A stretch of 64,000 nucleotides of DNA from positions 53,445 through 117,444 of the forward strand of contig PFCD01000001.1 of assembly GCA_002778455.1 (NCBI GenBank), written 5' to 3'. The notes below the pieces were generated by a model. The model did not search any database. It saw only the letters and a list, made by a program, of their open reading frames with translations, and had not been told where the DNA came from. Source of the DNA: Candidatus Micrarchaeota archaeon CG10_big_fil_rev_8_21_14_0_10_45_29. Lineage in GTDB: Archaea > Micrarchaeota > Micrarchaeia > Anstonellales > Anstonellaceae. Of this stretch, positions 21,324 through 55,834 are shown piece after piece; position 1 is the stretch's first letter; each line of letters opens with the position of its first letter. A program made the translations under genes and the position numbers.

Positions 21324-21326
21324 ATT

Positions 21327-24418: not shown

Positions 24419-25175
24419 GCAAATAGAGGGCGCATTCTCCTCGGTCACTTCAATTCTTTTCGGCAAAGCCCTCCAAAAAATTGACGACTACGGGGATTGG
24501 CTTTTGAAAAATCGAAGAAAGATAAGAACCGTAAAATCCACAATAAGCGGCAAAGAGGAGCTGATACCTCCGCTGGAGTTTCACCACGCAATCGACAGGG
24601 TATATGTTACAAACGAAGAGGCATTCAAACTCGGGGAAACAAAAGCAAAAAAAGAGGACATAGAAAAAACCACCATCCAAAACGCGGACAAAACACTCAA
24701 AAACATCCTTTATTACTCTCCCGACGTGCAAATGGGAAAAAATCAGGAAATGGAATTTTGCGCCCACTACATTGACTGCCAATTTTGCTACAAATCCGTC
24801 TCCATGGGGCATGTAAAATATGCTGCTTACTCTTTTTGGCCCCGCGACTCGGAATACATGTTTGGAGTGGACACCGTATTCTCCTCAAAATTCTGCATAA
24901 AATGCTACAATTCGGTAAATTTAACCCGCTGTTTTGAAACCTCCCACTCCTCCCATTGCTCTGACTGCTATTTCTGCCACAACTGCGACGGCTGTTCCGA
25001 GTGCATGTTTTGCACAAACGCAAAAAGCCTTCGCTATGCAATATTCAACAAACAATATCCAAAAGAGGAATACTTAAAACTCAAAAAGAAAATACAGGAA
25101 GAAATCTTCGCAAAATTGGAAAAAGATAAAAAATTAGACTTAAACATATTCAATTTAGGGTGCTATAAAAAATGA
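24405..25175 (+). CDS. Cys-rich paralogue, B-module only (256 aa), partner of 23660..24418
   Basis: 'FGKALQKIDDYGDWLL', 'YSFWPRDSEYMFG' and 'HCSDCYFCHNCDGCSECMFC' (7 Cys spaced CxxC) are present. The tail is 'YPKEEYLKLKKKIQEEIFAKLEKDKKLDLNIFNLGC'. It overlaps the upstream gene by 14 nt. Confidence 0.7.
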   Translation: MSMGEQIEGAFSSVTSILFGKALQKIDDYGDWLLKNRRKIRTVKSTISGKEELIPPLEFHHAIDRVYVTNEEAFKLGETKAKKEDIEKTTIQNADKTLKNILYYSPDVQMGKNQEMEFCAHYIDCQFCYKSVSMGHVKYAAYSFWPRDSEYMFGVDTVFSSKFCIKCYNSVNLTRCFETSHSSHCSDCYFCHNCDGCSECMFCTNAKSLRYAIFNKQYPKEEYLKLKKKIQEEIFAKLEKDKKLDLNIFNLGCYKK

Positions 25176-26767
25176 AATACTCGCAAGCCTACGAAGGGCT
25201 CAGCAAGGAATGGAAAAACACCTGCCGAATCCTGCTAAAAGAAGAGATAGGGGAGCTTAGCGACTTCAGTGGCTATCTCCAAAAATATATAGAGCCAGTA
25301 AGGGCGCAGAAATCATCGTTAAGCCAAAAGAGCATTACTCTCTCCAATGACGCCGCCTGTCCCCCAAAGAGAGTCATCGGAATGGAAGAGCTTGGCGTTT
25401 ATGCCAAAAAAACAGAAAAAATAAAGCTGGATATTAACCAAATCAAAGACATAGACTCCATTATCTCTTCTTTAGAGGAGAAATTTTATTATTGCGGAAA
25501 CGTCGTGCTCGGAAACTCAAGCAACGTGGAGAATTCCCACAGATGCACAAACACCAATTACGCACTAGCATCCCACGAAGTCGCGGATTGCCAGTATATC
25601 TCAAATTCAACAATGGCGAGATATTGCGAGTACATATTCGGTTCAAGCATTATGGGTGAGACAAAATACCTCATAAACGTCCTCTATTCTACAAAATCCG
25701 TGCGCTGCATGGAATGCACCCACCCCCTCCGTTCTTCCGACTGCTATTTCGGGGCAAACCTTGAGGACTGCTCCGACTGCATGTTCAGTTTCAATCTCAA
25801 GAATAAGAACAATTCCATCGGCAATCTGCCTCTTGAGAAAAGTAAATATATGCAAATAAAACAGAAGCTCTTATCCGAAATCGCCCGGAAGCTAAAAAAG
25901 GAGAAAAACATGCGTGGAATAATCGAGCTTATTGCCGGAATTCCAAGCCCTTCAACGCCAAAAGAGCGCCCCGAATACGTTTTCAAAACACAACACCCGC
26001 CTTCCAAGGAGGTGGAGGAGGCATTTCAAGCCACAACCAAGGTGCTTTTGGGAAAGCCCCTTTCAAATCTCCAGACATATGAGAAATATTTGCTTGCAAA
26101 CACGAAAAAACCCATCTCAGCCAAATCAGCCATAAGTTCAAAGCCCCTGCACGCAATCCCCATGCTCTTTAACCGGGAGCTGAAAAACTCCTTTGTAAGC
26201 CGGGATGAAGCTGCAGAGCTGTCCTCAAGGCGCATAAGCCCGCAATCCGCCGATGAACTAAGCCTTGAAAACATGGATAAAATCCTTCATGAGATCAAAT
26301 ACACTTGCCCTCAGGTAATTCTTGGAGAAAATGAGGATGTTGAAGAAAGCGTGGTTTACAACACATCAAGGCACTGCTACGGGGGCTCGGTGTATTATTT
26401 TGCAAAATATTGCGCCTATTGTTTCTGGCCGCGCAATTCCGAATACATCTTTGGTTCCACCTCCGTATTCTCATCAAAATTCTGCCTCGCTTGCCACTAT
26501 TCAAGCTCCCTTACCCGATGTTTTGAGCTTAGCGACTGCAACAACTGCTCCGACTGCTATTTCTGCCACAACGTGGAAAATTGCACAGAATGCATGTTCT
26601 GCTTCAATACAAAAGCCAAAAGATACGCAATCGGGAACGTGGAATATCCAAAGGAGGTATACTTAAAACTCAAAAAGAAAATACAGGAAGAAATCTTCGC
26701 AAAATTGGAAAAAGATAAAAAATTAGACTTAAACATATTCAATTTAGGGTGCAAAAAAAATGGATAA
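25172..26767 (+). CDS. Cys-rich paralogue, fused A+B form (531 aa)
   Basis: The N-half matches 23660 ('WKNTCRILLKEEIGEL', 'IKDIDSI', 'FYYCGN'). The C-half matches 24405, and its last 31 aa are encoded by 93 bp identical to 25071..25163. There is an ATGA overlap with the upstream gene. Confidence 0.75.
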   Translation: MKYSQAYEGLSKEWKNTCRILLKEEIGELSDFSGYLQKYIEPVRAQKSSLSQKSITLSNDAACPPKRVIGMEELGVYAKKTEKIKLDINQIKDIDSIISSLEEKFYYCGNVVLGNSSNVENSHRCTNTNYALASHEVADCQYISNSTMARYCEYIFGSSIMGETKYLINVLYSTKSVRCMECTHPLRSSDCYFGANLEDCSDCMFSFNLKNKNNSIGNLPLEKSKYMQIKQKLLSEIARKLKKEKNMRGIIELIAGIPSPSTPKERPEYVFKTQHPPSKEVEEAFQATTKVLLGKPLSNLQTYEKYLLANTKKPISAKSAISSKPLHAIPMLFNRELKNSFVSRDEAAELSSRRISPQSADELSLENMDKILHEIKYTCPQVILGENEDVEESVVYNTSRHCYGGSVYYFAKYCAYCFWPRNSEYIFGSTSVFSSKFCLACHYSSSLTRCFELSDCNNCSDCYFCHNVENCTECMFCFNTKAKRYAIGNVEYPKEVYLKLKKKIQEEIFAKLEKDKKLDLNIFNLGCKKNG

Positions 26768-27518
26768 CCTAAATGGCGTATTCAAGCAAACCTGCAAAAC
26801 AATCTTCGGCAAGGAGATAGGCGATTTGAAAAACTATGAATCCTACTTCAAGGAGGCAGTTCCCGGCATGGAGGTAAAATCCGCCTTCTCAGGGGAAACC
26901 GCCTTCGCGGCGGCAGACGACTACGCAAAGGGCTCAAAATTCTACAACTACCAAAAGGAAATAGATAAAATCTCAACCCTAAACAAGCCCTTTAACATAA
27001 ATGAAATAAAAGACATAGACTCCCTCATAAACGCCACCCGCGAGCGCTACGTCTATTCCTCAAACAAGATTTTGGGGAAATTTGAGAATGTGTCTGCATC
27101 GGATGTAATAATTGACTCCATAAACATTGTCGGAAGCGCAAACCTCTCAAAATGCAAAAACGCAGCCTTTTGCTTTCTGGCAAGAGAATCTCAAAACGTA
27201 TTTGGGTGCGCTTCATTCGGCTTTGATACAAATGTGATTCGCAGCTGCTACCACAAAAACAACGCACGAACTTTTGAGTGCGCGGTTGAGGAATACTTAA
27301 GCGACTCCCTTTTTTGCTACAATGTGTTCAATTCGTCCGATTGCATATTCTGTTTCAACCTAAAAAACAAGAAAAACATGGTAGCGAATATACAGCTTAC
27401 AAAAGAGCAATACTCGTCCAAAAAGGCGGACTTAATTGAGCAAATCACCTCTGAATTGGAGTCAAAGGGCAGGCTTGACTTTAGCATAATGGGTTTGAGC
27501 GGGCGTTTGCATGGATGA
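26760..27518 (+). CDS. Cys-rich paralogue, divergent A-module (252 aa)
   Basis: 'FKQTCKTIFGKEIGDLKNYESY', 'INEIKDIDSLI' and 'SSDCIFCFNLKNKKN' are present. It overlaps the upstream gene by 8 nt. Confidence 0.65.
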   Translation: MDNLNGVFKQTCKTIFGKEIGDLKNYESYFKEAVPGMEVKSAFSGETAFAAADDYAKGSKFYNYQKEIDKISTLNKPFNINEIKDIDSLINATRERYVYSSNKILGKFENVSASDVIIDSINIVGSANLSKCKNAAFCFLARESQNVFGCASFGFDTNVIRSCYHKNNARTFECAVEEYLSDSLFCYNVFNSSDCIFCFNLKNKKNMVANIQLTKEQYSSKKADLIEQITSELESKGRLDFSIMGLSGRLHG

Positions 27519-28284
27519 ATTTGAGAAATCATTTGCACAAACGACAAAAATTCTTCTTGGGGCAGAGCTTGGCTCTTTTTATGATTATTCAAAGTGGCTT
27601 TCTGAGCATGTGTTTTTACCTTATTGCGCAAAATCAAAAAAATCGGGAAAAGAAGTGTGGCTTGCACCCTCGCGGGACTTTCTTGGAAAAAAGTTTGACG
27701 CCGCCCGCATTGTCTCAATGGAGGAGGGGGAAATAAACAAAGAGAACTCCTACTCTTACGAGGACATAAAAGATGCGGATTTGAACTCATTTAGAACTAA
27801 ATTCTGCGAGCCAATAGCCCTGTATCTTGGGAACTTTCGCTACAAAACACATCAAAATGCTCTCAAATCTTCGGGAACAGGAGATTGTGTGAATGTGTAT
27901 ATGGGGGAAGATGTTTATCACGGTGCGCGCAACATCGGCTTTTGCAAAAGCATGCTATACTGCGAAAACATATTCGGATGCCGCGAGGGCACAAACTGCA
28001 AATACTGCATAAACTGCTACGGCTCAACCTACCTCACCAGATGCTTTGAGATGGATTCATGCACAAAATGCTCTGACTCATACTTCTGCCACAACTGCGA
28101 AAATTTGGAAAACTGCCTCTTCTGCTTCAACTCAAAAGGATTGCACTACGCAATAGCAAACATAGAAGTGGGAAAAGAAAAATACATGGAAATAAAAAAG
28201 AAAATCCTCACAGAAATTTCCCAAAAGCTTGAAAAAAACAAAAAACTTGACATAAGCATATTCAACATAGGTGCAAGAAAATGA
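27511..28284 (+). CDS. Cys-rich paralogue, B-module (257 aa)
   Basis: The core is 'TNCKYCINCYGSTYLTRCFEMDSCTKCSDSYFCHNCENLENCLFCFNSKGLHYAIANIEVGKEKY', and the tail is '..KLEKNKKLDISIFNIG'. It overlaps the upstream gene by 8 nt. Confidence 0.7.
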   Translation: MDEFEKSFAQTTKILLGAELGSFYDYSKWLSEHVFLPYCAKSKKSGKEVWLAPSRDFLGKKFDAARIVSMEEGEINKENSYSYEDIKDADLNSFRTKFCEPIALYLGNFRYKTHQNALKSSGTGDCVNVYMGEDVYHGARNIGFCKSMLYCENIFGCREGTNCKYCINCYGSTYLTRCFEMDSCTKCSDSYFCHNCENLENCLFCFNSKGLHYAIANIEVGKEKYMEIKKKILTEISQKLEKNKKLDISIFNIGARK

Positions 28285-29846
28285 GCCAAATAGCAGACGA
28301 GATAAACAAATCCTGGCACGAGACATTCAGGATTCTCTTTGGAACCGATTGCAAGCACAACCTTGAAGAACTCTCTGAATGGCTCTTTCGCGACCATTAT
28401 CCGCCCATGTACGTAAAATCCTCAATTTCCGGCAAACCAGTTACCCTCTGCTCCACAAGATACTCGAAAACTTCAAAATTCATCTCGCAGGAGGAAATAA
28501 GCTATTCCAGAAAGCACCGGCTAGACATAAACAAAATCAAGGATATTGACTCAATTCTTGAGGCAATAGAAGATCGCGCATATTATGCCGGAAACAAAAT
28601 ATTCGGCTCCACAACCAACAGCGAGTCCTGCGACAACATAACCGATTGCCACTATGCATACCATAGCTCTGTATGCTCCCAGTCAAAGCAGCTGGGCTAC
28701 TCTTCATACGCGCGCGACAACAGCGAATACTCCTTCGGCTCTGAAATACACAGCAAAGGCAAATACCTAATCCGGGTTTTGGGGGCCGCCGGCCTGGCCC
28801 GCTGTTTCGAGTCATACATAATAACCAATTCCTCTGACCTTTTCTATACTTTCGACTGCTCTGGCTGCGACAACGCAATGTTTTCCTTCGGCCTGCGCTC
28901 CAAACGATATTGCATAGGCAACCTGCCCCTCGAAAAATCCAAATACCTGCCCCTGAAGAAAAAACTCACCCAAGAAGCGGCAGAATACATAAACAAGCAC
29001 AAAACCTTCCCATCAGTATATGATTTTCCACCCCCAGACAAGTCCAAAATAAAGCCGCTTTCCATAACGCCTACTCTTGCCCCAAAAATGGATTTCAAGC
29101 CCATTGACGAGGCTTTTGAAACCGCCACCAAAGTAATCCTTGGAAAGCCCCTCTCCCCTGTAAAAAATTACCGGAAATTCCTCACAAAGCGCTCGGATGC
29201 CGTGCAGATAATAAAAACTATATTCGGAAGCGAGGGCCTCTACTCCAAGTACTCATGGTATCGCGCCGTCCCCCACGAGCGCGCAATAACCATGGCAGAG
29301 GCGCGCGAGATGGAAAGCCGCCACATAACTTTGAGCGAATCCGAAAATCTGGGCTCAATACTTAAAAAATGCGAAGCCATCGCCTTTTACGCAGTGGATT
29401 TCAAGGAGGGGCAGAACACAAACAACTCATACACCCAGGTGGAATTCAATGCCATAAACTCATACATGTGCGGGGATGTTACCTACTCAAAAAACGCGGC
29501 ATTTGACACAATGGCCTTCCACAGCGAGGCGGTGTTCGGCTGCTTTAGGGCAATACACTCCAAATATTCAATCCGCTGCCATGACTGCTTCCAATTAACC
29601 GCCTGCATGGACATGGACTCATGCTCCTACTGCTCAAATTCAATGTTTTGCCACAACTGCGAAAACCTTGAGAACTGCATGTTCTGCTTCAATGCAAAAA
29701 GCCTCAAATACGCCATAGGCAACGTGGAAGTAGGGAAAGAAAAATACGCCGAGATAAAAAAGAAAATCTGCGATGAAATATTAGCCCAAATAGAAAAAAA
29801 CGGGGATTTGGGCTTTGACATATGCGATTTAGGGTGCAAAAAATGA
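28281..29846 (+). CDS. Cys-rich paralogue, fused A+B form (521 aa)
   Basis: There is an ATGA overlap with the upstream gene. The A-half has 'WHETFRILFGTDC', 'INKIKDIDSI' and 'YYAGNKIFGSTTNSESCDN'. The B-half has 'FETATKVILGKPL' and 'CSNSMFCHNCENLENCMFCFNAKSLKYAIGNVEVGKEKY'. Confidence 0.75.
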   Translation: MSQIADEINKSWHETFRILFGTDCKHNLEELSEWLFRDHYPPMYVKSSISGKPVTLCSTRYSKTSKFISQEEISYSRKHRLDINKIKDIDSILEAIEDRAYYAGNKIFGSTTNSESCDNITDCHYAYHSSVCSQSKQLGYSSYARDNSEYSFGSEIHSKGKYLIRVLGAAGLARCFESYIITNSSDLFYTFDCSGCDNAMFSFGLRSKRYCIGNLPLEKSKYLPLKKKLTQEAAEYINKHKTFPSVYDFPPPDKSKIKPLSITPTLAPKMDFKPIDEAFETATKVILGKPLSPVKNYRKFLTKRSDAVQIIKTIFGSEGLYSKYSWYRAVPHERAITMAEAREMESRHITLSESENLGSILKKCEAIAFYAVDFKEGQNTNNSYTQVEFNAINSYMCGDVTYSKNAAFDTMAFHSEAVFGCFRAIHSKYSIRCHDCFQLTACMDMDSCSYCSNSMFCHNCENLENCMFCFNAKSLKYAIGNVEVGKEKYAEIKKKICDEILAQIEKNGDLGFDICDLGCKK

Positions 29847-31426
29847 GCGAACCCCTGCAAACCCTAGAGCGCAAATTCAAGGAGACCTGCAAAATAGTCC
29901 TCGGGGAGCCAGTAGGCGATTTGCAGGAATTTCTCCCATGGCTTTCAATCCATCCGGGCCAAATCAGCGCCAAAAAATCAAGCGTATCCGGAAAGCAGGT
30001 GGTATTTACCCGGATGGAATACGAAGGCAACCGCTTTATCAGCCTAGATGAGGTTGATTTCAGCAAAAAATACCCAAAAATTAATCCGGCCAGCATGGCA
30101 GGAATTGTTTCACTGGCAAAAACTCTTTCAGACCGTTTTTATTATGCAGGAAACCTGATTCTGGGCAATTCAAATTTTGTGGAGAGCAGCACAAACATAT
30201 CTGATTGCCATTATGCCTATGAAGCAATACAGGCAACCAATTCAAAATACATATTCAAGTGCAACCACGGGCGCGAGGACGATTCCCTATTCGGGGTTTA
30301 CGGCTCCGGGGAATCCTCATTCTGCCTAAGCTGCAGCCAGCTTGTGAGGGTAAAGCGCAGCATGGAAACATGGGTGAGCAACAACAGCTCGGATTGCTAT
30401 TATTGCTACGGGCTAGACAGCTGCAGCAACTGCATCTTTTGCTTCCATCTCAAAAACCGGCGCTATTGCGTTGGAAACGTGCAGCTTGAGCCAGAGGAAT
30501 ACGACCGGATAAAGCAAAGGCTATTATCCGAAATCAGGGGAATTCTAAAAAAGGAAAAAAAGATTCCCAGCCTTGTAGACGTTGCAAGAAAATGCAGGCT
30601 TTCAATACCCCCCCTATCCCAAACACGCCGGGACGAGAATTCAACTGAAGTTACAAACAAGAGGAGAATCGAGAACGAATTCGCGCTAACCTTTCTGGTA
30701 TTGTTTGGGCATGCCCCGGAAAGCATAGACAAATACGAGCAATTCCTCAGGCGCCACGTGAGGCTCAGCCAAACATGCAAGTCGGCGGCAAGCGGCAAGA
30801 GCATTGAGATGTGCACCCATGCCCTATTCAGGATAAACCTCCCGCCAGAGAGAATCCTCTGCATGGCAGAGGCGGAAGAACTGGGGGAGAAATACGACAT
30901 TGGCAAGGATGCGGCGCAAACCATATCAATGCAAAATGCTCATGAGAAAATATCCAAAATCGCCTTTTTCGACGCCGATTTCTGGGAGGGGCAAAATTCA
31001 AACATAATAGACTGTGTAGTGCCAGTAGAATCCTCCGACTGCTACAAATCCGTAGCCATGGTATATTCCAAAAACTGCGCATACACCTTCTGGCCTGTAA
31101 ATTCCTCAAACTGCTTTGGCTGCGACACCATCTTCCATTCCTCCAGCTGCATAAACTGCTACCACTCCGTAAAACTCTCCCGCTGCTTCGAGCTGGACTC
31201 CTGCCGCGACTGCTCAGACTCCCTTTTCTGCCACAACATAGAAAACTGCTCAAACTGTCTTTTTTGCTTTAACGTAAAAGCCAAAAGATACGCAATAGGC
31301 AACGTGGAATACCCCAAAGAAGAATACCTAAAACTCAAAAAGAAAATACTCATGGAACTTTCCCAAAAGCTTGAAAAGGATAAGAATCTCGATATATCCA
31401 TATTCAACATAGGGTGCAAAAAATGA
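29843..31426 (+). CDS. Cys-rich paralogue, fused A+B form (about 527 aa from the ATG at 29843)
   Basis: The likely start is 'MSEPLQTLERKFKETCKIVLGEPVGDLQEF', which overlaps the upstream stop as ATGA; the ORF track extends it to 29822. The B-half has 'YTFWPVNSSNCFGCDTIFHSSSCINCYHSVKLSRCFELDSCRDCSDSLFCHNIENCSNCLFCFNVKAKRY'. Confidence 0.75.
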   Translation: MSEPLQTLERKFKETCKIVLGEPVGDLQEFLPWLSIHPGQISAKKSSVSGKQVVFTRMEYEGNRFISLDEVDFSKKYPKINPASMAGIVSLAKTLSDRFYYAGNLILGNSNFVESSTNISDCHYAYEAIQATNSKYIFKCNHGREDDSLFGVYGSGESSFCLSCSQLVRVKRSMETWVSNNSSDCYYCYGLDSCSNCIFCFHLKNRRYCVGNVQLEPEEYDRIKQRLLSEIRGILKKEKKIPSLVDVARKCRLSIPPLSQTRRDENSTEVTNKRRIENEFALTFLVLFGHAPESIDKYEQFLRRHVRLSQTCKSAASGKSIEMCTHALFRINLPPERILCMAEAEELGEKYDIGKDAAQTISMQNAHEKISKIAFFDADFWEGQNSNIIDCVVPVESSDCYKSVAMVYSKNCAYTFWPVNSSNCFGCDTIFHSSSCINCYHSVKLSRCFELDSCRDCSDSLFCHNIENCSNCLFCFNVKAKRYAIGNVEYPKEEYLKLKKKILMELSQKLEKDKNLDISIFNIGCKK

Positions 31427-32148
31427 AAAAAAAGAAACAGCCCCAAGAAATTCAAAAAACCGACTCAAAGCTCAAAGCCGCAACCATTGGCTTCTACCAC
31501 CAAAACTGCCAGACAAGCATAAGCACCGAAAAATTCCCCCACATCACTTTGGAGCAGGTAAGCCCGGTGGTATATTTCAGAAGGGAAAAGGACTGGATGG
31601 ACTACAGCCTCATATGGAACGTAAAGGCCGAAAAAGAGTCCGAATTAGAAGAATACTTAAATTATATAAAAAAGCGAAACGACACAAAGCGCCTCTCCAT
31701 ACTGAACAAATCAGGCACAGAAGCCCTCATCCTCCTGCGCTTCAAATCCCCCTCCTCAAGCTATGAAAAAGTCCTTGAGAGCGGCACAATCCCCACCTCC
31801 CCTGTAATAGCAAAAGAGGGCTTTGAGACATATAATTTGCTTGCAATAAATCCGAAGGGAATCAAAAACCTCTCAAAAGAGCTTGACGCCATAGGGGACG
31901 TGAAAATGATGCGCGTGGGCGAATACAAAAATTCCGGCGACTTGCCATCCCTTACCCACAAGCAAAAAGACGCGCTCATAATGGCGATGATAAACGGCTA
32001 TTACAAATGGCCGAAAAGCACAAATCTTGAAAAGCTCTCAGAGCTTGCAAACATATCCAGAAGAAGCATGCAGGAGAGGCTGCGCCGCGCCGAATCCAAG
32101 CTTTTTCCCCATTTAATCAAAAAACACGTAAAAAAGGGCGAAAAATAG
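31423..32148 (+). CDS. HTH_10 (bacterio-opsin-activator/Bat-type) helix-turn-helix transcriptional regulator embedded in the Cys-rich gene array
   Basis: The C-terminal 'LTHKQKDALIMAMINGYYKWPKSTNLEKLSELANISRRSMQERLRRAESKLF' matches HTH_10 strongly. The probable ATG at 31423 overlaps the upstream stop (ATGA). The ORF track start at 31414 would require a GTG start. Confidence 0.7.
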   Translation: MKKKKQPQEIQKTDSKLKAATIGFYHQNCQTSISTEKFPHITLEQVSPVVYFRREKDWMDYSLIWNVKAEKESELEEYLNYIKKRNDTKRLSILNKSGTEALILLRFKSPSSSYEKVLESGTIPTSPVIAKEGFETYNLLAINPKGIKNLSKELDAIGDVKMMRVGEYKNSGDLPSLTHKQKDALIMAMINGYYKWPKSTNLEKLSELANISRRSMQERLRRAESKLFPHLIKKHVKKGEK

Positions 32149-32160
32149 GGCATATGCCCT

Positions 32161-33783
32161 ATGCAAGTTTATTACATTAAACTCCCTTATCCATATATGC
32201 CTGAACCCCTAGACACGCTGCAACAAAGATGGGATGCCACATGCAAAATATTGCTAGGCGAGCCGATAGGCGCTTTGCAGGATTACAGGGAATGGCTTCT
32301 GGAGCTCACCGAACCCCTCCACCACACCGCCTCCTCAATTTCCGGCAAAAAAACCACATACTACGTAACCAAATACGAAAAAAATTCAAAAAGAATCTCA
32401 TTTGAAGAGATAGATTTTGCCAAAAATTACCCTGCCCCAAATATGGATGCAAAAAATATACAAGAGCTTCTTAACTCAATCTCCGGCCGTTTCCACTACG
32501 CTGGAAACATAATTCTTGGAAAATGCGGCGCAATAGAAAAATCCTCAAATTTGCAAAACTCGTTTTACATGCTTGAGTCCGGCAACTACGACGGCTGCAA
32601 ATACACGGCATACTCTACGGTGGGCAGATTCTCCGAGGACTCATACGGGGGAAACGGCATAGGAAACTCATCCATAGTGCTAAAGTGCAAAGAAACTTTT
32701 GAGAATAAACGCTGCCTTGAGGCATGGATGAGCCAATATGTATCTGACTGCTACTACTCGTACGCTCTTGCAAACTGCTCTGACTGCATGTTTTGCTTCC
32801 ACCTAAAGGGCAAAAAGCACTGCATAGGCAACCTGCAATTAACTCCTGAGCAATACAAGCAAATTAAGAAAAAACTCCTCTCCCAAATGCTCTCCTACTT
32901 AAAAGAGCACAAGCGCCTTCCCTCTTTGGCGGAAATTGCCAGAAATTCAAAATTGGACAAATCCATAATAGAAAAAATAAAATTGCCAGAGTCAAAAAAA
33001 GAGAAAAAAGATTTGCAGGAAATAGAATCTGCCTTCAAAAAAGCCTGCAAACTCATTTTCGGAAAAGAGCTTCCTGGCAAAATAGACGATTATGGCAAAT
33101 GGCTCTCCACAAACAAGAGGGAAATAAAATCATACAAATCCGCAATTTCGGGAAAGCCAGTATTCATTGGTGACTACTGCGCCCTCTTTGATTTGCCAAA
33201 AGACCGCCTCCTAGGGGCGGATGAAGCCCCAGCATTCGCGCAGGCGGCGCATCTCTCTTTAGAAGAAGTGCAAAGCCTTGAATTTTCCAAAATAACCCAA
33301 ATACTTGGGAAAATCGCCTATTTCTCCCCAGAATATTACGAGGGCGCAAGCGCGAACATAATAGACACTCCAACGGCAATGGATTCCTCCAACTGCTACA
33401 AAACATTTGCAACCGTATGGGCAAAATATTGCGCCTATGGCTTCTGGCCGCGAAGCTCCGAATACATTTTCGGCTTTGACACCTGCCTCTCCTCCTCCTT
33501 TTGCATAAACTGCTACAATTCCACCAGCCTCACCCGCTGCTTTGAGATGGACGGGTGTGCAAACTGCTCGGATTCATACTTCTGCCACAACTCAGAATCA
33601 CTCTCAAACTGCCTCTTCTGCTTCAACGTAAAGGCAAAGCACTATGCAATTGGAAACGTAGAGGTGGGAAAAGAAAAATACGAAAAAATAAAAAAAATGG
33701 TTTTGGAAGAAATTGCGAAAAAGCTTGAAAAAGAGAAAAAGCTAGAATTAAATATCTACAACATCGGCTCTTTAAAAAAATAA
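32161..33783 (+). CDS. Cys-rich paralogue, fused A+B form (about 528-540 aa)
   Basis: The N-terminus is 'LQQRWDATCKILLGEPIGALQDYREWLL'. The B-half has 'FKKACKLIFGKELPGKIDDYGKWL', 'YGFWPRSSEYIFG', 'CANCSDSYFCHNSESLSNCLFCFNVKAKHYAIGNVEVGKEKY' and the tail 'KLEKEKKLELNIYNIG'. The true start may be the ATG at 32197. Confidence 0.75.
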   Translation: MQVYYIKLPYPYMPEPLDTLQQRWDATCKILLGEPIGALQDYREWLLELTEPLHHTASSISGKKTTYYVTKYEKNSKRISFEEIDFAKNYPAPNMDAKNIQELLNSISGRFHYAGNIILGKCGAIEKSSNLQNSFYMLESGNYDGCKYTAYSTVGRFSEDSYGGNGIGNSSIVLKCKETFENKRCLEAWMSQYVSDCYYSYALANCSDCMFCFHLKGKKHCIGNLQLTPEQYKQIKKKLLSQMLSYLKEHKRLPSLAEIARNSKLDKSIIEKIKLPESKKEKKDLQEIESAFKKACKLIFGKELPGKIDDYGKWLSTNKREIKSYKSAISGKPVFIGDYCALFDLPKDRLLGADEAPAFAQAAHLSLEEVQSLEFSKITQILGKIAYFSPEYYEGASANIIDTPTAMDSSNCYKTFATVWAKYCAYGFWPRSSEYIFGFDTCLSSSFCINCYNSTSLTRCFEMDGCANCSDSYFCHNSESLSNCLFCFNVKAKHYAIGNVEVGKEKYEKIKKMVLEEIAKKLEKEKKLELNIYNIGSLKK

Positions 33784-33792
33784 GAAAAAAAA

Positions 33793-35538
33793 CTACTCCA
33801 GCGGCCCCCTGCCCTTAAAATACGTCTTCTCGCCGGTATAAGGGTCATGCTTTATGCCCAAATCAACATTTATCCAATCCTGCGTATCAACCGTGCGGGT
33901 TATCATGGGGATAATATATTTTTTGCCGTCATATAGGCGGGCAATGCATTCGCGGGTATGCAATTTCACAAACATTTCCCTCTTGGAGGCATCAAGCTCG
34001 GAAGGACTGACGCTTCGCTTGAAAAATTCCTCCACCTTTATATCCATCATGGATGAGAGAAGGCGCGCATCCTCTTTTGTAACGCGAAAAGCGAATATGT
34101 TGCGCGCATTTGAAATAAGGGCATCAAGCACCTCTTTTGAGAGTTGCCCCAAATACTGGGCGGCGGCATAAGTGTATAAATTAAACTTGCGCGTCTCTGC
34201 CAAAATGTCTTTTACAACCTTTGTCTCAACAGTGGGAAATTCATCCACTATAAGCATGGTTTGCATTTTTAGCTTCTCGCTAATCGCCATCATATACATC
34301 TGATTCACTATGGCGCCAGCAAAAAATTTGATTATCCTGCGCCCGAAAAAGTGGGGGTTGAAAGAGACGATTGTAAGCCTCTCGTTTTGCACTATTTTTC
34401 CCAAATCTTCCAAATGCTTTGCCTTTCCCAAATAAAGCATGTATTCGCCTATGAAATTTGTGACGGGCAATATGGCGTCGTTGAAATGGTGCATATAAAT
34501 GTCCTGAAATTCCTTGTCAAAAAACCGCTTTACCTCGTCATTTTGGCTCATGGCGGTGAATTCCATTCTTTTTGAAGAGTCGGTAAGAAGCAAATTAATA
34601 TTCTCAAGGTTCAAATCGTTGATGTCTGCCAAAAGGTGCACAGAGTAAAACACCACTCTCTCCGCGTATTTTGACTCCTGCGCTATTGTGGAGGTAATAA
34701 GCTGAGCAACCAATTGGGTGATAAGCGGGCTTTTTCCTGTGCCCACGTCAAAGGGCTCCACATAATTGTTGCGAAAGTCAATTATTTTCGCGTCAGGGAA
34801 ATATTTTGCAAATTCTCCGTGCGGGTCCACAACAACTATTCGCACATCTTTGTATTTTTGCAAAACCGCTTTTATGAGTATTTGTATAAATTTGGATTTT
34901 CCGCTTCCCGAAGTGCCTACAATGATGCCGTGCTGGAAAACGTCAAAATTATTTACCCCTATGCGCGCGCTGTCGCTCACAAGCACGGGGTTTGGCGACT
35001 CCAAATAAACCGCCTTGGGAATAGGGTCAAGCAATTCTATGTAAAAGAGGGGGTTGTTCTCAAGGTCTATCTCCAAAAATTTCATGGGGTTTGTAAGCGC
35101 AAGCATCCCGCGCCTCCCCCCGTAATCCACAAAATTTCCAAAGCCGTAGTAAATGCCAAAGAATTTTATGACTCTAATCCTTATCTCCTCAACATTTTCC
35201 TTTATCAAAAAGTTGAAGAAATTTGTGCCGCCTACAACTTTTGTTCCAAGGGAAAATTTGCTTTTTGAGAGCTCGAGGGGCGCCGGGTCGTTTATCCTGA
35301 AAGGAAACATCAATGCCGACTGCCCGTATATGTTGTCTTTGTCCTTGATAAACATCTTTATGGTGTTGTTATACCTTTTTATTACAAATTCCACTCCGCG
35401 AAAAGAGAAAGCGCGCGATAGGTCTATTGCCTCCAGGAGCGGTATATGCTTTTTTGTAAGCATGTCAAATGTGCGCTTGTAATCCTCCGAAGTTATTTTT
35501 GGAGCGTAAATGGAGAGCTCTGCGTATTTTTTTGCCAT
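33793..35538 (-). CDS. HerA/VirB4-like (DUF87/AAA_10-type) P-loop NTPase
   Basis: Walker A is 'GIIVGTSGSGKSKFIQIL'. 'VVVDPHGEFAKYF' is a HerA/VirB4-type motif and Walker B is 'MLIVDEFPTV'. 'RKFNLYTYAAAQ' is an arginine-finger/Q motif. No NurA partner is seen nearby. Confidence 0.65.
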   Translation of the reverse strand: MAKKYAELSIYAPKITSEDYKRTFDMLTKKHIPLLEAIDLSRAFSFRGVEFVIKRYNNTIKMFIKDKDNIYGQSALMFPFRINDPAPLELSKSKFSLGTKVVGGTNFFNFLIKENVEEIRIRVIKFFGIYYGFGNFVDYGGRRGMLALTNPMKFLEIDLENNPLFYIELLDPIPKAVYLESPNPVLVSDSARIGVNNFDVFQHGIIVGTSGSGKSKFIQILIKAVLQKYKDVRIVVVDPHGEFAKYFPDAKIIDFRNNYVEPFDVGTGKSPLITQLVAQLITSTIAQESKYAERVVFYSVHLLADINDLNLENINLLLTDSSKRMEFTAMSQNDEVKRFFDKEFQDIYMHHFNDAILPVTNFIGEYMLYLGKAKHLEDLGKIVQNERLTIVSFNPHFFGRRIIKFFAGAIVNQMYMMAISEKLKMQTMLIVDEFPTVETKVVKDILAETRKFNLYTYAAAQYLGQLSKEVLDALISNARNIFAFRVTKEDARLLSSMMDIKVEEFFKRSVSPSELDASKREMFVKLHTRECIARLYDGKKYIIPMITRTVDTQDWINVDLGIKHDPYTGEKTYFKGRGPLE

Positions 35539-49489: not shown

Positions 49490-51901
49490 ATGGCAGAATT
49501 GGCACAACGGCTGGATTGCAAATGCGAGGAAAAATGGCAGGCTTTTTGGGAAAAAAACAAATGCTTCTCATTTGATGAAAAAGGCTCCTCTCTCCCAGTG
49601 TATTCAATAGACACCCCTCCCCCCTTCACATCCGGGGATTTGCATATGGGGCATGTTCTCTCCTACTCTTACTTTGACTTTGTTGCAAGATACAAAAGAA
49701 TGCAGGGGTATAACGTATATTTTCCCCAAGGGTGGGACTGCCAGGGCTTTCCAACAGAGGTGAGGGTGGAAAAAAAGCACGGGCGCAAACCCCCTGAGGA
49801 ATTTCGCGCCCTTTGCAGGCAATGGACAGAGCAATGCATTTCAAACATGAAATCCCAGATGCAGAGGATGGGCTTTTCCGCCGACTGGAAATACGAATAC
49901 CGCACAATGGACCCCTCATACCACAAAAAAGTGCAGCTCTCAATTCTTAAAATGCATTCAGCGGGGCAGGTGTACCGCGCAAAGCATCCCGTATTCTGGT
50001 GCCCGAATTGCCGCTCCGCGCTTGCAAAAACCGACACAGACGAGATGGAGCGAAGCTCAACTTTGCATGACATAAAATTCGAACTGCAAACTGGCAAGGG
50101 GGAGAAAAAAGAAGCAATAATTTCCACCACCCGCCCGGAATTGATGCACGCATGCGTTGCGGTGCTATTCAACCCCAAAGATTCTCGCTACACAAAATAT
50201 TCGGGCGCAAATGCAATTACCGCGCTAGGGAAAGTTGTGCCCCTTCTTCCTGACAATGATGTTGACATTGAATTTGGCAGCGGGCTTGTAATGGTGTGCA
50301 CATTCGGAGACAAGCAGGATGTTGTATGGATGTACCGCCACAAGCTTCCGCACATCGAGGCAATGGATGATGCAGGGCGCCTCAAAAATGCAGGCGAATT
50401 CGACGGGCTAAAATGCGAGGAGGCAAAGAAAAAAATCCTTGAAAAATTCAAAAACGAGGGAAAGCTTCTCTCTTCCAGGCCAATTGCACAGGCAGTAAAA
50501 GTGCATGATAGGTGCGGCAAAGCAGTAGAGCTTGCAAACTCATGGCAATGGTTTGCCAAAATAACCGATAAGCGCGCCCGGATAGTTGATGCGGCAAAAA
50601 AAATGAAATGGATTCCCTCTTTTGCAATTTCCCACCTTGAGAATTGGGCAGAATTTGTGGAATGGGACTGGGTAATTTCGCGCCAGAGGATATTCGGCAC
50701 CCCAATCCCTTTCTGGGTATGCGAGAAATGCTCAAAAATAATTCCTGCAAAAGAGGAAGAATTGCCGGCAAACCCCCCAACGCAAAAAAAGAAATGTTTA
50801 TGCGGAGGCGATGCAAAAGGGGAAACCTCAGTCTTTGACTGCTGGGTGGATTCCTCAATAACTCCGCTTATAATTTCCAAATGGGAGGAGGATGAGAAAT
50901 TTTTCAAGCGCACTTATCCCTCTTCGCTTCGCCCGCAGGGGGTGGAAATAATTCGCACCTGGGCATTTTACACAATTTACCGCTGCCTTGAATTGACGGG
51001 AAAGCCCCCCTTCACCGAGCTTCTGCTTAACGGAAACGTGCTTGCGCCTGACGGCAAAAAAATGTCAAAGTCTTTGGGAAACATAATAGCGCCAGATAAA
51101 TTAATTGATGAGAGCGGCGCGGATTCTGTGCGCATATGGGCCGCACTCTCGGGCGCAATGGCAAAGGACCGCCCGTTTTCCCATCAGGACATAAAATACG
51201 CAAAAAGCTTTCTTAACAAATTTTTAAATGCCGGAAAATTCGTGCAAAAAGCAAACGCGGGCTACACTTCTTCACAGGAGGATGCAAAAAATTTGCGCAC
51301 AATAGACAAATACTTCTTGCACAGGCTCAACGAGGTTATCACAACATGCGCATCTGCTTGGGAAAACTACGAATTTCACCACATAATAAAAGCATCGCAT
51401 GACTTTTTCTGGCACGAATTTTGCGACTATTATTTGGAATACGTGAAAAACCGCATCTATTCCAAAGAAGACAGCCCTGACAAGCGCGCGGCTCAATATT
51501 GTTTGCACACAATATATTCGCAAATAATTTTGCTTCTTGCGCCTATTACCCCTCACGCATGCGAAGAAGTTTGGCAAATTTTCAAAAATAAGGAAAATTC
51601 CTCGGTGCAACTTGAAAAATACCCGCAAGCATCCAAAATTTTCAGCCACCCCTCGACAGCGGGCGCCGGAAAGCTTCTTGAGACGCTTGTCTCGCAAATA
51701 AGGCAGGAGAAGGCAAACAAAAAATTATCCCTAAATTCTCCGGTGCAAAAGCTCTCCCTCGCCCTGCCAAAAGAGCAAATGCATTTCTTTGAAAAAGTGG
51801 AAGATGAATTAAAATCGGTGTGCAACATAGAAGAAATTGAGAAAAAAGACGGAAGCGAGCTTTCCATTAAACTTTCTATCCCAGAGCCCGACGCCGGCTA
51901 A
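49490..51901 (+). CDS. valS: Class Ia aminoacyl-tRNA synthetase, most likely valyl-tRNA synthetase (short form, 803 aa)
   Basis: 'IDTPPPFTSGDLHMGHVLSYSYFDFVARYKRMQGYNVYFPQGWDCQGFPTE' is the HIGH region, and 'GKKMSKSLGNII' is the KMSKS motif. The Val versus Ile assignment is tentative. Confidence 0.55.
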   Translation: MAELAQRLDCKCEEKWQAFWEKNKCFSFDEKGSSLPVYSIDTPPPFTSGDLHMGHVLSYSYFDFVARYKRMQGYNVYFPQGWDCQGFPTEVRVEKKHGRKPPEEFRALCRQWTEQCISNMKSQMQRMGFSADWKYEYRTMDPSYHKKVQLSILKMHSAGQVYRAKHPVFWCPNCRSALAKTDTDEMERSSTLHDIKFELQTGKGEKKEAIISTTRPELMHACVAVLFNPKDSRYTKYSGANAITALGKVVPLLPDNDVDIEFGSGLVMVCTFGDKQDVVWMYRHKLPHIEAMDDAGRLKNAGEFDGLKCEEAKKKILEKFKNEGKLLSSRPIAQAVKVHDRCGKAVELANSWQWFAKITDKRARIVDAAKKMKWIPSFAISHLENWAEFVEWDWVISRQRIFGTPIPFWVCEKCSKIIPAKEEELPANPPTQKKKCLCGGDAKGETSVFDCWVDSSITPLIISKWEEDEKFFKRTYPSSLRPQGVEIIRTWAFYTIYRCLELTGKPPFTELLLNGNVLAPDGKKMSKSLGNIIAPDKLIDESGADSVRIWAALSGAMAKDRPFSHQDIKYAKSFLNKFLNAGKFVQKANAGYTSSQEDAKNLRTIDKYFLHRLNEVITTCASAWENYEFHHIIKASHDFFWHEFCDYYLEYVKNRIYSKEDSPDKRAAQYCLHTIYSQIILLLAPITPHACEEVWQIFKNKENSSVQLEKYPQASKIFSHPSTAGAGKLLETLVSQIRQEKANKKLSLNSPVQKLSLALPKEQMHFFEKVEDELKSVCNIEEIEKKDGSELSIKLSIPEPDAG

Positions 51902-51946
51902 TATTTTATTTGAATTTTTTTATCAGGCAATTTAGTTTATTATGGT

Positions 51947-52215
51947 GTTTTCTATGAATGAAATTTTATTCCTAACTTCCAACAAGCACAAAATCGCAGA
52001 GGCACAAACCATTTTAACCAGAAACGCAGGGGGGAACCATCCCAAGTCCTCTGTCCCCCCTTCATTTCCTAGGTTACCTTCTGATTCCCCCCTAAACTTT
52101 AGAAAAGTGCCTCTCTTCCTCCCATTATTTTTCGGCAAGGTCGTTTTCTATGAATGAAATTTTATTCCTAACTTCCAACAAGCACAAAATAACCGAAGCA
52201 CAAACCATTTTAAAC
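51947..52215 (+). repeat. About 70-bp direct repeat duplicating the 5' end of the ITPase gene (51947..52018 and 52143..52215), flanking a 124-bp C-rich insert
   Basis: 'gttttctatgaatgaaattttattcctaacttccaacaagcacaaaat..gcacaaaccattttaa' is present twice, with about 5 mismatches. The upstream copy would encode 'MNEILFLTSNKHKIAEAQTIL' fused to unrelated sequence, so it is a pseudo-start. Confidence 0.8.
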
Positions 52216-52707
52216 AAGTATAATCTAAAGTTAGTAAGCTTCCCCGGCAAGGGAGAGGAGATACAATCCGACTCTTTGCAGGAAGTTGCAAGAATTTGCG
52301 CCAAAAGAGCATACCTGCGCATCAAAAAGCCCCTCTTTGTAGAGGATTCGGGGCTTTTCATAGACGCGCTAAACGGCTTTCCCGGGGCATATTCTGCATT
52401 TGCATTAGATAAAATCGGCTGCGAGGGAATTCTTCGCCTGCTGGGCCAAGAGCGTCTGAGAGGCGCCCGTTTCGAGTGCGCGGTTGCGTACGCGGATAAA
52501 AACGGCACCCGTATTTTCACGGGCGCCGTGTTGGGAAGCATCTCAACTCAAATATTTGAGGGAGAAGGCTTTGGTTATGACCCCATTTTCATTCCAGAGG
52601 GGCATAAGCAAACTTTTTCTAAAAATTTTGAAGTGAAAGAGAAAATTTCACACCGCTCCATTGCGCTTGAGAAGCTGGCAAAATTCCTAACAGAGAAAAA
52701 AGAGTGA
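52150..52707 (+). CDS. Non-canonical purine NTP pyrophosphatase (Ham1/RdgB/ITPase family)
   Basis: 'ILFLTSNKHKITEAQ', 'FVEDSGLFIDALNGFPGAYSA', 'FGYDPIFIPEGHKQTFS' and 'KEKISHRSIALEKL' are canonical ITPase motifs. Confidence 0.85.
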   Translation: MNEILFLTSNKHKITEAQTILNKYNLKLVSFPGKGEEIQSDSLQEVARICAKRAYLRIKKPLFVEDSGLFIDALNGFPGAYSAFALDKIGCEGILRLLGQERLRGARFECAVAYADKNGTRIFTGAVLGSISTQIFEGEGFGYDPIFIPEGHKQTFSKNFEVKEKISHRSIALEKLAKFLTEKKE

Positions 52708-53784: not shown

Positions 53785-53862
53785 CCGCTTTTTTTATTTT
53801 AATTTTCTTTCTATTTTTTTTAATAAGTTTTTTCTATTTTTTTATTCAGCGATGCCTATTTA
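53785..53862 (+). terminator. T-rich tract downstream of rps3ae (archaeal oligo-T terminator-like)
   Basis: 'ccgctttttttattttaattttctttctatttttttttaataagttttttctatttttttatt' contains several T6-T9 runs. Confidence 0.4.
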
Positions 53863-55290
53863 ATGCTTACAGCGGTATCTGCATTTATGCCGGCCCAAAA
53901 AAATAAGCAGGACGCTCAAAAAGGCATTTTAACAGAGGCTCAGAGTGCCTCCAAAACTGGAGGAAAGCTAAGCCAAATTATTCCGGTGCGCACCCTTCCG
54001 CAGAAAGCTTCGAAAAAAAAATATGATATAGAAAACATCCTTCCCTCCAGCGAGGCAACTTTGGGCGAATGCGAGGATGCAATAAAAAAAATAGCCCAAT
54101 CCCGTAATCTCTCATTTCTGATTCTTCTTGACACTTCGGGCAGCTTTTACAAATTTCTTGGAAAAATATCCAAAGCCGCCCGCAGTTTCAGCGGGCTTTC
54201 CCAAGAGAGCAGAAATATTGAGGGCGAGCTGGAGCTGTTTCCAAAAGACAAAGACAATGCCGACCTTGATGACAACATCTCCGCAATAGAGGAGGCGTGC
54301 GACCCCTCCTTAAAATTTCAAAATTATGTTTTTGTAACCGACGGGGGAAACCTAAATATCAGGCCCGGTTGGATTTATGAGCAGGCGCAGATTCTAAACA
54401 AGCAGGGAAAAGCAGTGCATTTTCTTTATGCAGAAGAGAACAAGTATGCAAAACGCAGCAGCAACCTCTGGGCAGTCATTTACTTATGCTATCTTACCGG
54501 CGGCTCAGCCGCGCCTCTTAACGGCGCAACAAATAACGACATTGCAAAAATGATAACTCAGGACGGAAAGGCGCAATATGAAAGCGCGGCGGACTTTGCC
54601 GCAAAAAACGGGCTTGCTGAAGGAAACTTGCTGCAAATTGCGACTTTGATAGATTCTGGCGAGCTTGAGCTCTTATACCGCGAGGGCCTGCTCCATGAGA
54701 TGCGGGACCTGCTGTTCGGCTCATATATCAATTTGGTCAGGCCAGAATATGTAGAATTTTTGTTTGAGAAGCAATTCTTAAGGTCAACCGACCGGTGGTA
54801 TCTGGGCGAACTCTTATACAACATATCCAATGCAGGAAATTCCGGAGTTGTGAAAGTTTTTGCCAGGAACGGTGCGAATATTGAATGGGAAGATGGCAGG
54901 GGGGATAGCGCCCTCAATAAAAAAGCCGCGGAAGGGAACCTGGGCATGGCAAAAACCCTTGTGAAGTGCGGTGCAAATATTCACCATAAAAACATGCATG
55001 GGGATGATGCCCTTCACATAGCCGCCATAAACGGGAATCTCGAGGTCCTGAAGTTCTTCCTTGATACTAAAAAGGCAGACATAAATGCAAAAGATAATAA
55101 CGGCAATACCATTCTTCATATAGCTGCCAAGGCGGACAATCTGGAGCTGGCGAAGATTGCCCATGAGCGCGGGGCAGGCATTAACATATTAAACGAGTTT
55201 AGTGCCACTCCTCTTGACTGGTGCAAGCGCGGCGGGCAGGTTGAGGCTTATCTGCGCTCAATAGGGGCAAAAAAGAACCTTCCCTATTGA
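53863..55290 (+). CDS. Ankyrin-repeat protein (at least 4 ANK repeats C-terminal, uncharacterised N-terminal domain)
   Basis: 'GDSALNKKAAEGNLGMAKTLVKCGANIHHKNMHGDDALHIAAINGNLEVLKFFLDTKKADINAKDNNGNTILHIAAKADNLELAKIAHERGAGIN' carries the classic ANK signature (G-TpLH-AA..G......LL..GA). Confidence 0.7.
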   Translation: MLTAVSAFMPAQKNKQDAQKGILTEAQSASKTGGKLSQIIPVRTLPQKASKKKYDIENILPSSEATLGECEDAIKKIAQSRNLSFLILLDTSGSFYKFLGKISKAARSFSGLSQESRNIEGELELFPKDKDNADLDDNISAIEEACDPSLKFQNYVFVTDGGNLNIRPGWIYEQAQILNKQGKAVHFLYAEENKYAKRSSNLWAVIYLCYLTGGSAAPLNGATNNDIAKMITQDGKAQYESAADFAAKNGLAEGNLLQIATLIDSGELELLYREGLLHEMRDLLFGSYINLVRPEYVEFLFEKQFLRSTDRWYLGELLYNISNAGNSGVVKVFARNGANIEWEDGRGDSALNKKAAEGNLGMAKTLVKCGANIHHKNMHGDDALHIAAINGNLEVLKFFLDTKKADINAKDNNGNTILHIAAKADNLELAKIAHERGAGINILNEFSATPLDWCKRGGQVEAYLRSIGAKKNLPY

Positions 55291-55318
55291 TTATCGGGCG
55301 CAAAATAATTCTTCCACT

Positions 55319-55834
55319 TTAATTCTTATGCCCGCACCTCGGGCACCTTTTCGCGTCAGGGCGAATATCTGAATTGCAAACAGGGCATTGCACCCACTGC
55401 TTTCGGCTTTTAAGAAGCCCCTCGCTTTGCCCGTTTTTTGCAAATTTATCAGGAACTTTATGGGTTTCTTCTTTTCCGGCATCCACGCCCTCGCCGCTAT
55501 CAGCGTTTCCTGCGCCTCCACCATGTGCAGGCATCCCTTGCATATTCTCTCCCATGCCTGAAAATCCTGCGCCATATCCGCCGCCATGGCTATTTTCCCC
55601 GCCTGCAAATCCTGCCCTTCCCTCATTATTTGAAAATTTGCCCTGCTCCTCGCCAACTCCCCTCGCCCCGCTAACGCTTCCAAAAGGCATTTTCCCCTTA
55701 TTCGCCTCCCCTCCCCGTCTCTCAAACCTAAACCCGCATTTGCCGCAGCTTTTCTGGGAAGTCAAATTCGAAGCCCCGCATTTGGGGCATTTTATGGTAG
55801 GGCTTTTCTCTTTTTTGTGAATATGGGTTTGCAT
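55319..55834 (-). CDS. Double zinc-ribbon protein with a central Gly/Ala-rich low-complexity region
   Basis: The N-terminus has 'CPKCGASNLTSQKSCGKCG'. The C-terminus has 'CPVCNSDIRPDAKRCPRCG'. The middle has 'GGGYGAGFSGMGENMQGMPAHGGGAGNADSGEG'. Confidence 0.5.
   Translation of the reverse strand: MQTHIHKKEKSPTIKCPKCGASNLTSQKSCGKCGFRFERRGGEANKGKMPFGSVSGARGVGEEQGKFSNNEGRAGFAGGENSHGGGYGAGFSGMGENMQGMPAHGGGAGNADSGEGVDAGKEETHKVPDKFAKNGQSEGLLKSRKQWVQCPVCNSDIRPDAKRCPRCGHKN

Follow-up and report, generated by a model that had tools for sequence, protein, structure and literature searches.

The Ham1/ITPase gene (ham1) of this archaeon lies between a valS-like gene and rps15 in the window analysed here, which is the whole 64-kb stretch of DNA (GC 45.7%), and archaeal ribosomal protein genes are among its neighbours. 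The encoded ITPase matches an NCBI entry from Candidatus Micrarchaeota (DPANN archaea) at 100% identity. In the space between valS and ham1, the 5′ end of ham1 is present a second time, separated from the true start by a short insert. The features of this locus (locus A) are as follows.

49490 to 51901, plus strand: valS-like class I aminoacyl-tRNA synthetase gene (Pfam tRNA-synt_1 and Anticodon_1), syntenic in relatives L004, L005/6 and L008.
51947 to 52020, plus strand: repeat copy 1, a pseudo 5′ end of ham1 (7-nt leader, ATG at 51954, 22 codons).
51954 to 52157, plus strand: pseudo-ORF A, 67 aa, running from the duplicated ATG through insert A; NCBI hypothetical protein PIT84980.1.
52021 to 52142, plus strand: insert A, 122 nt, C-rich, with no homologue found.
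52021 to 52040, plus strand: left-terminal motif GAAACGCAGGGGGGAACC of insert A, common to the left end of the 10.4-kb insert (10444–10466).
52028 to 52039 and 52082 to 52093, no strand: imperfect inverted repeat AGGGGGGAACCA / TGATTCCCCCCT, 12 nt, 11/12 matching, enclosing 42 nt.
52143 to 52216, plus strand: repeat copy 2, the true ham1 start, with the outgroup state at two informative sites (GAA, AAC).
52150 to 52707, plus strand: intact Ham1/ITPase gene (Pfam Ham1p_like, E=5e-46), followed by rps15 and rps3Ae.

The two copies form a 74-nt direct repeat (51947–52020 and 52143–52216), recovered by both a repeat search and self-BLAST, in which 69 of 74 positions are identical at a spacing of 196 nt. 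It takes in the initial 22 codons of ham1 together with 7 nt of leader, close to the original prediction, made from the letters alone, that about 70 bp and about 19 codons are repeated about 196 bp upstream. The C-rich segment between the copies, put at 124 bp in that prediction, measures 122 nt and begins as described, with (ca)GAAACGCAGGGGGGAACC. Its composition is C 34% and G 16%, against C 25% and G 21% for the window, and the G6/C6 tracts reported in it are indeed there, as one G6 and two C6. Such tracts number about 60 in the 64-kb window, or roughly 1 per kb, and three in 122 nt exceed that density some 25-fold.

Differences between the copies are concentrated next to the insert: the first 48 nt contain none and the last 26 nt contain all five, an arrangement with a probability of (26/74)^5 = 0.005 under an even spread. 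They are in part synonymous third-position changes (ATC/ATA, GAG/GAA, CGA/AGA, CTT/CTC and TCC/TCA). Counted together with those of the companion locus at 10.4 kb (locus B, described below), five of six repeat differences pair an A in the functional copy with a C or G in the pseudo-copy. With so few sites, neither this base bias nor the synonymous changes can be interpreted or called significant. At the two informative sites the downstream copy of ham1 appears to keep the ancestral state, a weak indication with relatives this distant. Because the sequence upstream of copy 1 shows no homology to the 3′ part of insert A, the duplication is no longer than measured.

Locus A is base-for-base identical in three further assemblies from three samples (L001–L003) and is fixed in the population. 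The structure at 10.4 kb is likewise identical in the independent assembly L009, and neither structure is therefore an assembly accident. The first 60 nt of the L009 contig (ENA contig k141_1130727, positions 1–60) are Illumina adapter (CAAGCAGAAGACGGCATACGAGAT...GTGCTCTTCCGATCT) fused to genome sequence.

Both loci, at 52 kb and at 10.4 kb, are derived relative to related genomes. Three related Micrarchaeota lineages (L004, L005/6 and L008), whose ITPases are 71–76% identical to the ham1 product, keep the gene order lactamase-B, valS, ham1, rps15, rps3Ae, and in all three the valS–ham1 junction has no repeat and no insert. The gap at this junction is 4, 10 and 44 nt in the three relatives and 249 nt here, indicating that 196 nt were added in this lineage; the absence of insert and duplication that the original prediction proposed to look for in related strains is found in these three relatives. 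At 10.4 kb, the gap from the GGR-like gene to the PHP gene is 17 nt, or a 4-nt overlap, in relatives, compared with 298 nt here. The closest other ITPase in the protein collection is 76% identical, so no close insert-free strain is represented, and no strain with an empty site was found in the collections. The protein cluster of the pseudo-ORF (PIT84980.1) has members from this population alone.

The window contains no tRNA genes, and no transposase, integrase or reverse transcriptase was found among its ORFs scanned against Pfam. Rfam returns 0 matches across the whole window at gathering score, and only chance-level matches at E<=10 in 51900–52250 and 10250–10700. On the 3′ side of rps3Ae is a 475-aa ankyrin-repeat gene (53863–55834), preceded by an extremely AT-rich stretch (53790–53862); relatives L005/L006 have no ankyrin gene at this position, and the zinc-ribbon gene beside it is inverted in orientation relative to L006. 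Elsewhere in the window, a cassette occurs three times in tandem at 23660–33783, in diverged copies that are in places 72–78% identical at the DNA level. Its ORFs, of about 250, 256 and 530 aa, have no Pfam match, and the array is flanked on one side by type II/IV secretion ATPase and platform genes (19941–23048) and on the other by a HerA/FtsK-like ATPase gene (33796–35538, minus strand).

The companion locus has the same architecture, as the original prediction had it: a 38-nt repeat (10405–10442 and 10620–10657, 37/38 identical) surrounds a 177-nt insert at the start of the PHP gene, and a tandem duplication lies immediately alongside.

10262 to 10421, plus strand: insert-free tandem duplication (event 1), period 77 nt, with 70–77-nt copies at 10275 and 10352.
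10405 to 10442, plus strand: copy 1 of the 38-nt repeat (14 nt of leader and 8 codons of the PHP gene).
10419 to 10628, plus strand: pseudo-ORF B, 69 aa, opened by the duplicated PHP start and crossing the whole of insert B.
10443 to 10619, no strand: insert B, a 177-nt palindromic hairpin cluster between G-rich and C-rich arms.
10469 to 10498, 10495 to 10526, 10538 to 10568 and 10565 to 10595: the four GTAG-tagged hairpin units of insert B.
10620 to 10657, plus strand: copy 2 of the 38-nt repeat, the true PHP gene start (PHP gene, 10634 to 11323).

Event 1 spans from the 3′ end of the FAD-oxidoreductase (GGR-like) gene to the ATG of the PHP gene and is joined at a shared GCAA(A/G). Its copies differ within the first ~35 nt of the second copy and by a small indel, at the junction. 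A local-repeat scan of the whole window recovers three events (locus A, locus B and event 1), with nothing comparable outside coding repeats, and all three duplications lie on gene boundaries. One of the coding repeats is an in-frame 45-nt pair (2603–2647 and 2690–2734, 91% identical, spacing 87) that encodes an acidic EDEDEDEG stretch in an 862-aa ORF without a Pfam match and is unrelated to the arrangement at ham1.

The PHP protein in the collection (P0125, 221 aa) is called from 10658 rather than 10634, eight codons short and just past the repeat, and thereby lacks the first His of the conserved DLHMHS metal-binding motif; the gene caller was probably misled by the duplication. Downstream, 11424–18673 holds a 2,182-aa ORF, whose sole Pfam match is one HATPase_c domain, and a 234-aa ORF, both between the PHP gene and an undecaprenyl-diphosphate synthase gene. 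The latter two genes are adjacent in another Micrarchaeota genome, the MAG JBDRNY01 (L029), which makes the intervening block, about 7 kb long, a lineage-specific insertion.

The two inserts had been taken to be a related small element, and the comparison bears this out only in part, since they are not detectably the same element. Insert B is strongly palindromic (fold z −7.3 and −9.2), with imperfect subterminal G-rich and C-rich arms, whereas folding of insert A is not significant (z −0.4 on both strands; best sub-hairpin z −1.5). In local alignment they score no better than chance: 338 of 500 shuffles that preserve homopolymer runs equal the best score. Similarity between them is seen at the ends. 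Both inserts open with GAAAC(C)GC(GG)AGGGGGG(C)AAACC within 1 nt of the left junction, and the score of 13 for a junction-anchored alignment is reached in 2 of 5,000 shuffles and 22 of 21,712 rotations. The arms of insert B, taken without the hairpins, are collinear with the first ~80 nt of insert A (13/1000 shuffles). The right ends, comparing a 77-nt core of A with B, match weakly (96/3000) across a boundary chosen after looking. A further resemblance links the left end of insert A to the left arm of a hairpin array in a second genome (L028, below; 36/3000). All of these end-similarity tests were designed after the pattern had been noticed and so are suggestive only. Insert A could be a relative of B that lacks the hairpin units and is followed by 45 nt of unexplained sequence. 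Thus, of the proposal that gene starts were duplicated around a related element at two loci, the twofold, derived architecture stands; relatedness of the inserts, which is partly supported, would be confined to their ends, with mobility unproven.

The hairpin units of insert B belong to a family that also occurs in other contexts. Each unit has conserved flanks (ATCCCAA ... TTGTAGGA) around a variable stem, and is modelled as a 4-bp AUCC/GGAU helix, a UA bulge and an 8-bp variable stem with GTAG at the end; orientations alternate. A degenerate pattern of the unit finds two further sites in JBDRNY01 (L022 and L028).

L022, 2594 to 2772, minus strand: B-family units in a tRNA-Gly(CCC) gene, within its ~110-nt intron.
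L028, 2203 to 2395: B-family hairpin array of ~190 nt, directly 3′ of tRNA-Pro (fold z −7.3).

Across seven units, compensatory changes occur in 5 of 12 base pairs and 94% of cells pair; the covariation score is reached by 0 of 500 shuffles. A covariance model (R1) built from these seven units recovers four in insert B and, searched against 52021–52142 with filters off at E<=10, none in insert A. The copies in L022 and L028 have flanking repeats of at most 7–11 nt. The presence of the family in these other contexts indicates that Micrarchaeota have small elements that move or are copied. Sequences from Flavobacteriaceae (L020 7181–7209, L023 3651–3679, L024 2100–2420) carry a separate repeated hairpin, AAATCCCAATGYGC-loop-GCRCATTGTAGGATTT, whose conserved flanks are those of the Micrarchaeota unit and which is arrayed together with a GGATTACTTCGTGATCCC repeat; this represents either convergence on the GTAG tag or something shared.

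For insert A, no source or second copy was found. BLAST against the window and the relatives' loci, down to 7-nt words, gives no match, and shared k-mers between inserts A and B and their flanks of 1, 5 and 64 kb show no excess on either strand. Phage records and IMG/VR viral contigs match neither insert. Among 1.84 billion representatives, the minus-frame peptide of insert A, chosen as its more protein-like frame, has no match apart from itself and a single spurious translation of a repeat. No second copy is present in the 64-kb window, the relatives' loci, the phage and viral collections or the proteins. A metagenome scan with the left-end motif returned 10 chance matches, none extending beyond the pattern, in a collection that lacks the source locus, and accordingly says nothing about further copies in the genome. 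Within the 2,182-aa ORF, 13268–13317 contains GAAAACGCAGGGGGGG followed by C6 about 30 nt on; one 13-mer of it (AAACGCAGGGGGG) recurs at the left end of insert A, a match in the range that chance gives for 12-mers, and the layout of a G run then a C run is the same. The inverted repeat within insert A (52028–52093) is set back from both junctions, by 7 nt on the left and 49 nt on the right, and there are no terminal inverted repeats at the actual ends; it is possible that this inverted repeat is the core of an element.

Each insert can be read through in exactly one of its three frames, the one set by the duplicated start codon. Pseudo-ORF A ends at a TGA (52155–52157) that overlaps the true ham1 start (ATG 52150; ATGAATGA), pseudo-ORF B at a TAA (10626–10628) 5 nt before the true PHP ATG at 10634, so that both terminate within 8 nt of the true start. 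In dinucleotide shuffles an open frame arises with probability 0.24 and 0.17, jointly about 0.04. The open frames would fit, and do not prove, selection for translation across the insert followed by re-initiation at the true start. An archaeal bulge-helix-bulge intron was considered as well, given the B-family units inside a tRNA-Gly intron, but splicing out insert A alone would leave the duplicated copy in place.

Since the insert lies exactly at the join at both loci, duplication and insertion are most likely one event. We rejected a two-step history, tandem duplication with a later insertion, which needs two exact coincidences; in addition, the right part of the insert is not homologous to downstream ham1.

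The reading we tentatively favour, at somewhat less than even probability, is that insert A records an old insertion of a small non-autonomous element that made a long target duplication and rebuilt the gene start. A single old event would have struck the once tight valS–ham1 junction, and insert A would be its fixed and partly decayed scar. As a small non-coding segment entered, 74 nt of target would have been duplicated on both sides, as by staggered cuts and fill-in, and the first ~77 nt of the entering segment would have carried G-rich and C-rich arms resembling those of the 10.4-kb hairpin element. DPANN archaeal genomes have almost no spacer DNA. Such an insertion would survive in a spacer-poor genome only if the duplicated stretch held the gene boundary, the downstream copy then restoring the ham1 start. 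Transcription would presumably still begin at the old promoter upstream of copy 1; ribosomes would initiate at ATG 51954, cross the insert and stop at the true ATG (ATGAATGA), where they may re-initiate. Entry of an element is favoured by the repeats that directly flank the insert at both loci, by the derived state and its identity across assemblies, by the motif at both left junctions, by the B-family units in other contexts, by the in-phase open frames and by inserts that are not templated by nearby sequence; the long direct repeats documented for IS1549 and IS1634 also speak for it. Against it, insert A has no inverted repeats at its ends, no second copy and no hairpin of the B family, the scanned ORFs of the window encode no transposase, integrase or reverse transcriptase, and the B-family copies in L022 and L028 have short flanking repeats, not long ones.

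A broader claim, which we regard as unlikely, is that Micrarchaeota harbour a family of small non-coding elements, all with G-rich and C-rich arms and some with GTAG-tagged hairpins as well, that enter tight gene junctions, make duplications of 38–79 nt starting near the transcription start of the downstream gene, and leave a bridging frame to the true start. Insertions of this type would rescue their own damage. The position at gene starts is best explained by survivorship in every model that survives: with spacers of 4–50 nt, only events that rebuild the boundary are tolerated.

Nearly as likely as a mobile element, if still on the improbable side, is a replication or repair accident in which template switching or end joining at the boundary captured filler DNA and selection spared the outcomes with intact starts. 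The window itself provides a precedent in the insert-free tandem duplication of the same size class with a scarred junction (10262–10421), and the copy differences lie beside the junctions, 0 in 48 nt then 5 in 26 nt at locus A and similarly in event 1, a placement that fits error-prone repair better than clean fill-in. A repair accident explains both of these observations better than entry of an element does. It would also suit insert A, an orphan without element features, and insert B, which is a strong palindrome; strong palindromes are known to stall replication forks. What it has to contend with is that no template for either insert was found on either strand of the surrounding 64 kb, that no microhomology can be read at the A or B junctions, and that the ~20-nt motif common to both left junctions is left unexplained.

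We consider it improbable that the upstream copy derives from the ham1 of another lineage, with the insert as remains of the incoming DNA, whether through a small integrating DNA with an att-like site or through one homologous and one illegitimate crossover. Several of the repeat differences are synonymous at third positions, their count being too small for significance, and the variant specified by the upstream copy, IAEAQTIL, is plausible for the family (compare P0009 and P0014). An identity of 93–97% between repeats is typical of att sites. Recombination with a diverged copy does not readily account for the first 48 nt being identical and the differences being confined beside the insert; there is no integrase nearby or elsewhere in the window, the supposed elements are merely 122–177 nt long, and the relatives whose upstream region can be read (L004, L005/6 and L008) have nothing insert-like upstream of ham1.

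Still less probable is an RNA-mediated route, in which template jumping joined the ham1 mRNA 5′ end to a second RNA in a chimeric cDNA, which then entered at the transcription start of the gene, so that the repeat would begin where the mRNA begins. The repeats do begin close to the ATG (7 and 14 nt 5′ of it), where a purine follows a pyrimidine, and about 25 nt 3′ of AT-rich, TATA-like stretches (T7AT at 51915–51923; TTAAAT boxes at 10296–10312), but the fit is loose, as several AT-rich boxes are available and the transcription starts are putative. Units of the B family are found inside a tRNA intron and so exist as RNA, and the base bias of the repeat copies described above (five of six differences) points the same way; set against these points, the window contains no reverse transcriptase and the insert-free duplication starts at no plausible transcript start. 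A diversity-generating retroelement was rejected: the window has no reverse transcriptase, the repeat is the 5′ rather than the 3′ end of the gene, one of five differences does not have A in the downstream copy (the other four do), and only a small minority of adenines differ.

Very improbable, finally, is an assembly artefact joining two strain variants of the gene start in tandem, for although the copies differ by a few bases, as strain variants do, the arrangement recurs without a difference in four assemblies, which come from three or more samples and were built with two or more pipelines, 122 nt of unique sequence separate the copies, and the same pseudo-ORF is annotated in the NCBI record.

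How insertions are tolerated in spacer-poor DPANN genomes is the practical question that these loci address. If they are scars left by elements, as we tentatively prefer, they offer a small model, readable from sequence, for long target duplications (40–80 nt) such as those of IS1634/IS1549, and the pseudo-ORF bridge would illustrate in a simple way how a gene in a compact genome can stay expressed once an insertion has occurred. If they are repair accidents, the finding is an ordinary one, and still a warning that gene callers annotate a pseudo-ORF (PIT84980.1) and mis-start the PHP gene.

Among known systems, insert A falls outside every family that could be tested. An element integrated at an att site differs in that only 122 nt lie between the repeats here and the window encodes no integrase domain. 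Template switching by FoSTeS/MMBIR resembles these loci in having extra sequence at the join, point changes by the breakpoint and an insert-free duplication nearby. Junctional inserts of FoSTeS/MMBIR usually copy nearby sequence, with microhomology at the joins, whereas at loci A and B neither local templating nor microhomology was found. A MITE is likewise a small, non-coding, AT- or GC-skewed insert with repeat flanks at a gene boundary, and insert B has imperfect G-rich and C-rich arms. MITEs make short target duplications of fixed length (2–10 bp) and occur in many copies; insert A, in the available sequence, has neither a short fixed duplication nor many copies.

To our knowledge, the spread of REP and REPIN sequences is not associated with flanking duplications. 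The likeness to REP/BIME/REPIN elements, which are linked to RAYT or to IS200/IS605 Y1, concerns insert B only, with its short hairpins of alternating orientation, compensating variable stems and GTAG by the stem; they differ in that the GTAG tag is 3′ of the hairpin in insert B, and insert A has no such hairpin. REPs 'terminate at one end with GTAG' and, in the same survey, GTAG repeats are listed from bacterial phyla only (PMC3733652). IS200/IS605 elements are reported from more than 65% of Micrarchaeota genomes (PMC13343696).

The inserts also differ from IS1634 and IS1549, which are 1.5–2 kb long and have a DDE transposase and terminal inverted repeats, in measuring 122–177 nt, in the absence of a transposase and of further copies from the window, and in the lack of end inverted repeats in insert A. 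The long duplications made by IS1634 and IS1549 have been known since the 1990s. Direct repeats of 8–514 bp are generated by these two elements, whose family is diverse in archaea, and a 2008 review notes that there is no mechanistic model for duplications of this length (PMC2266710). They are the only described precedent for such long and variable duplications, and they share with the loci described here an insert that is directly flanked by long target repeats of varying length (38 and 74 nt here). If insert A is an element, it would count as a new variant among the small insertion elements that duplicate long stretches of target.
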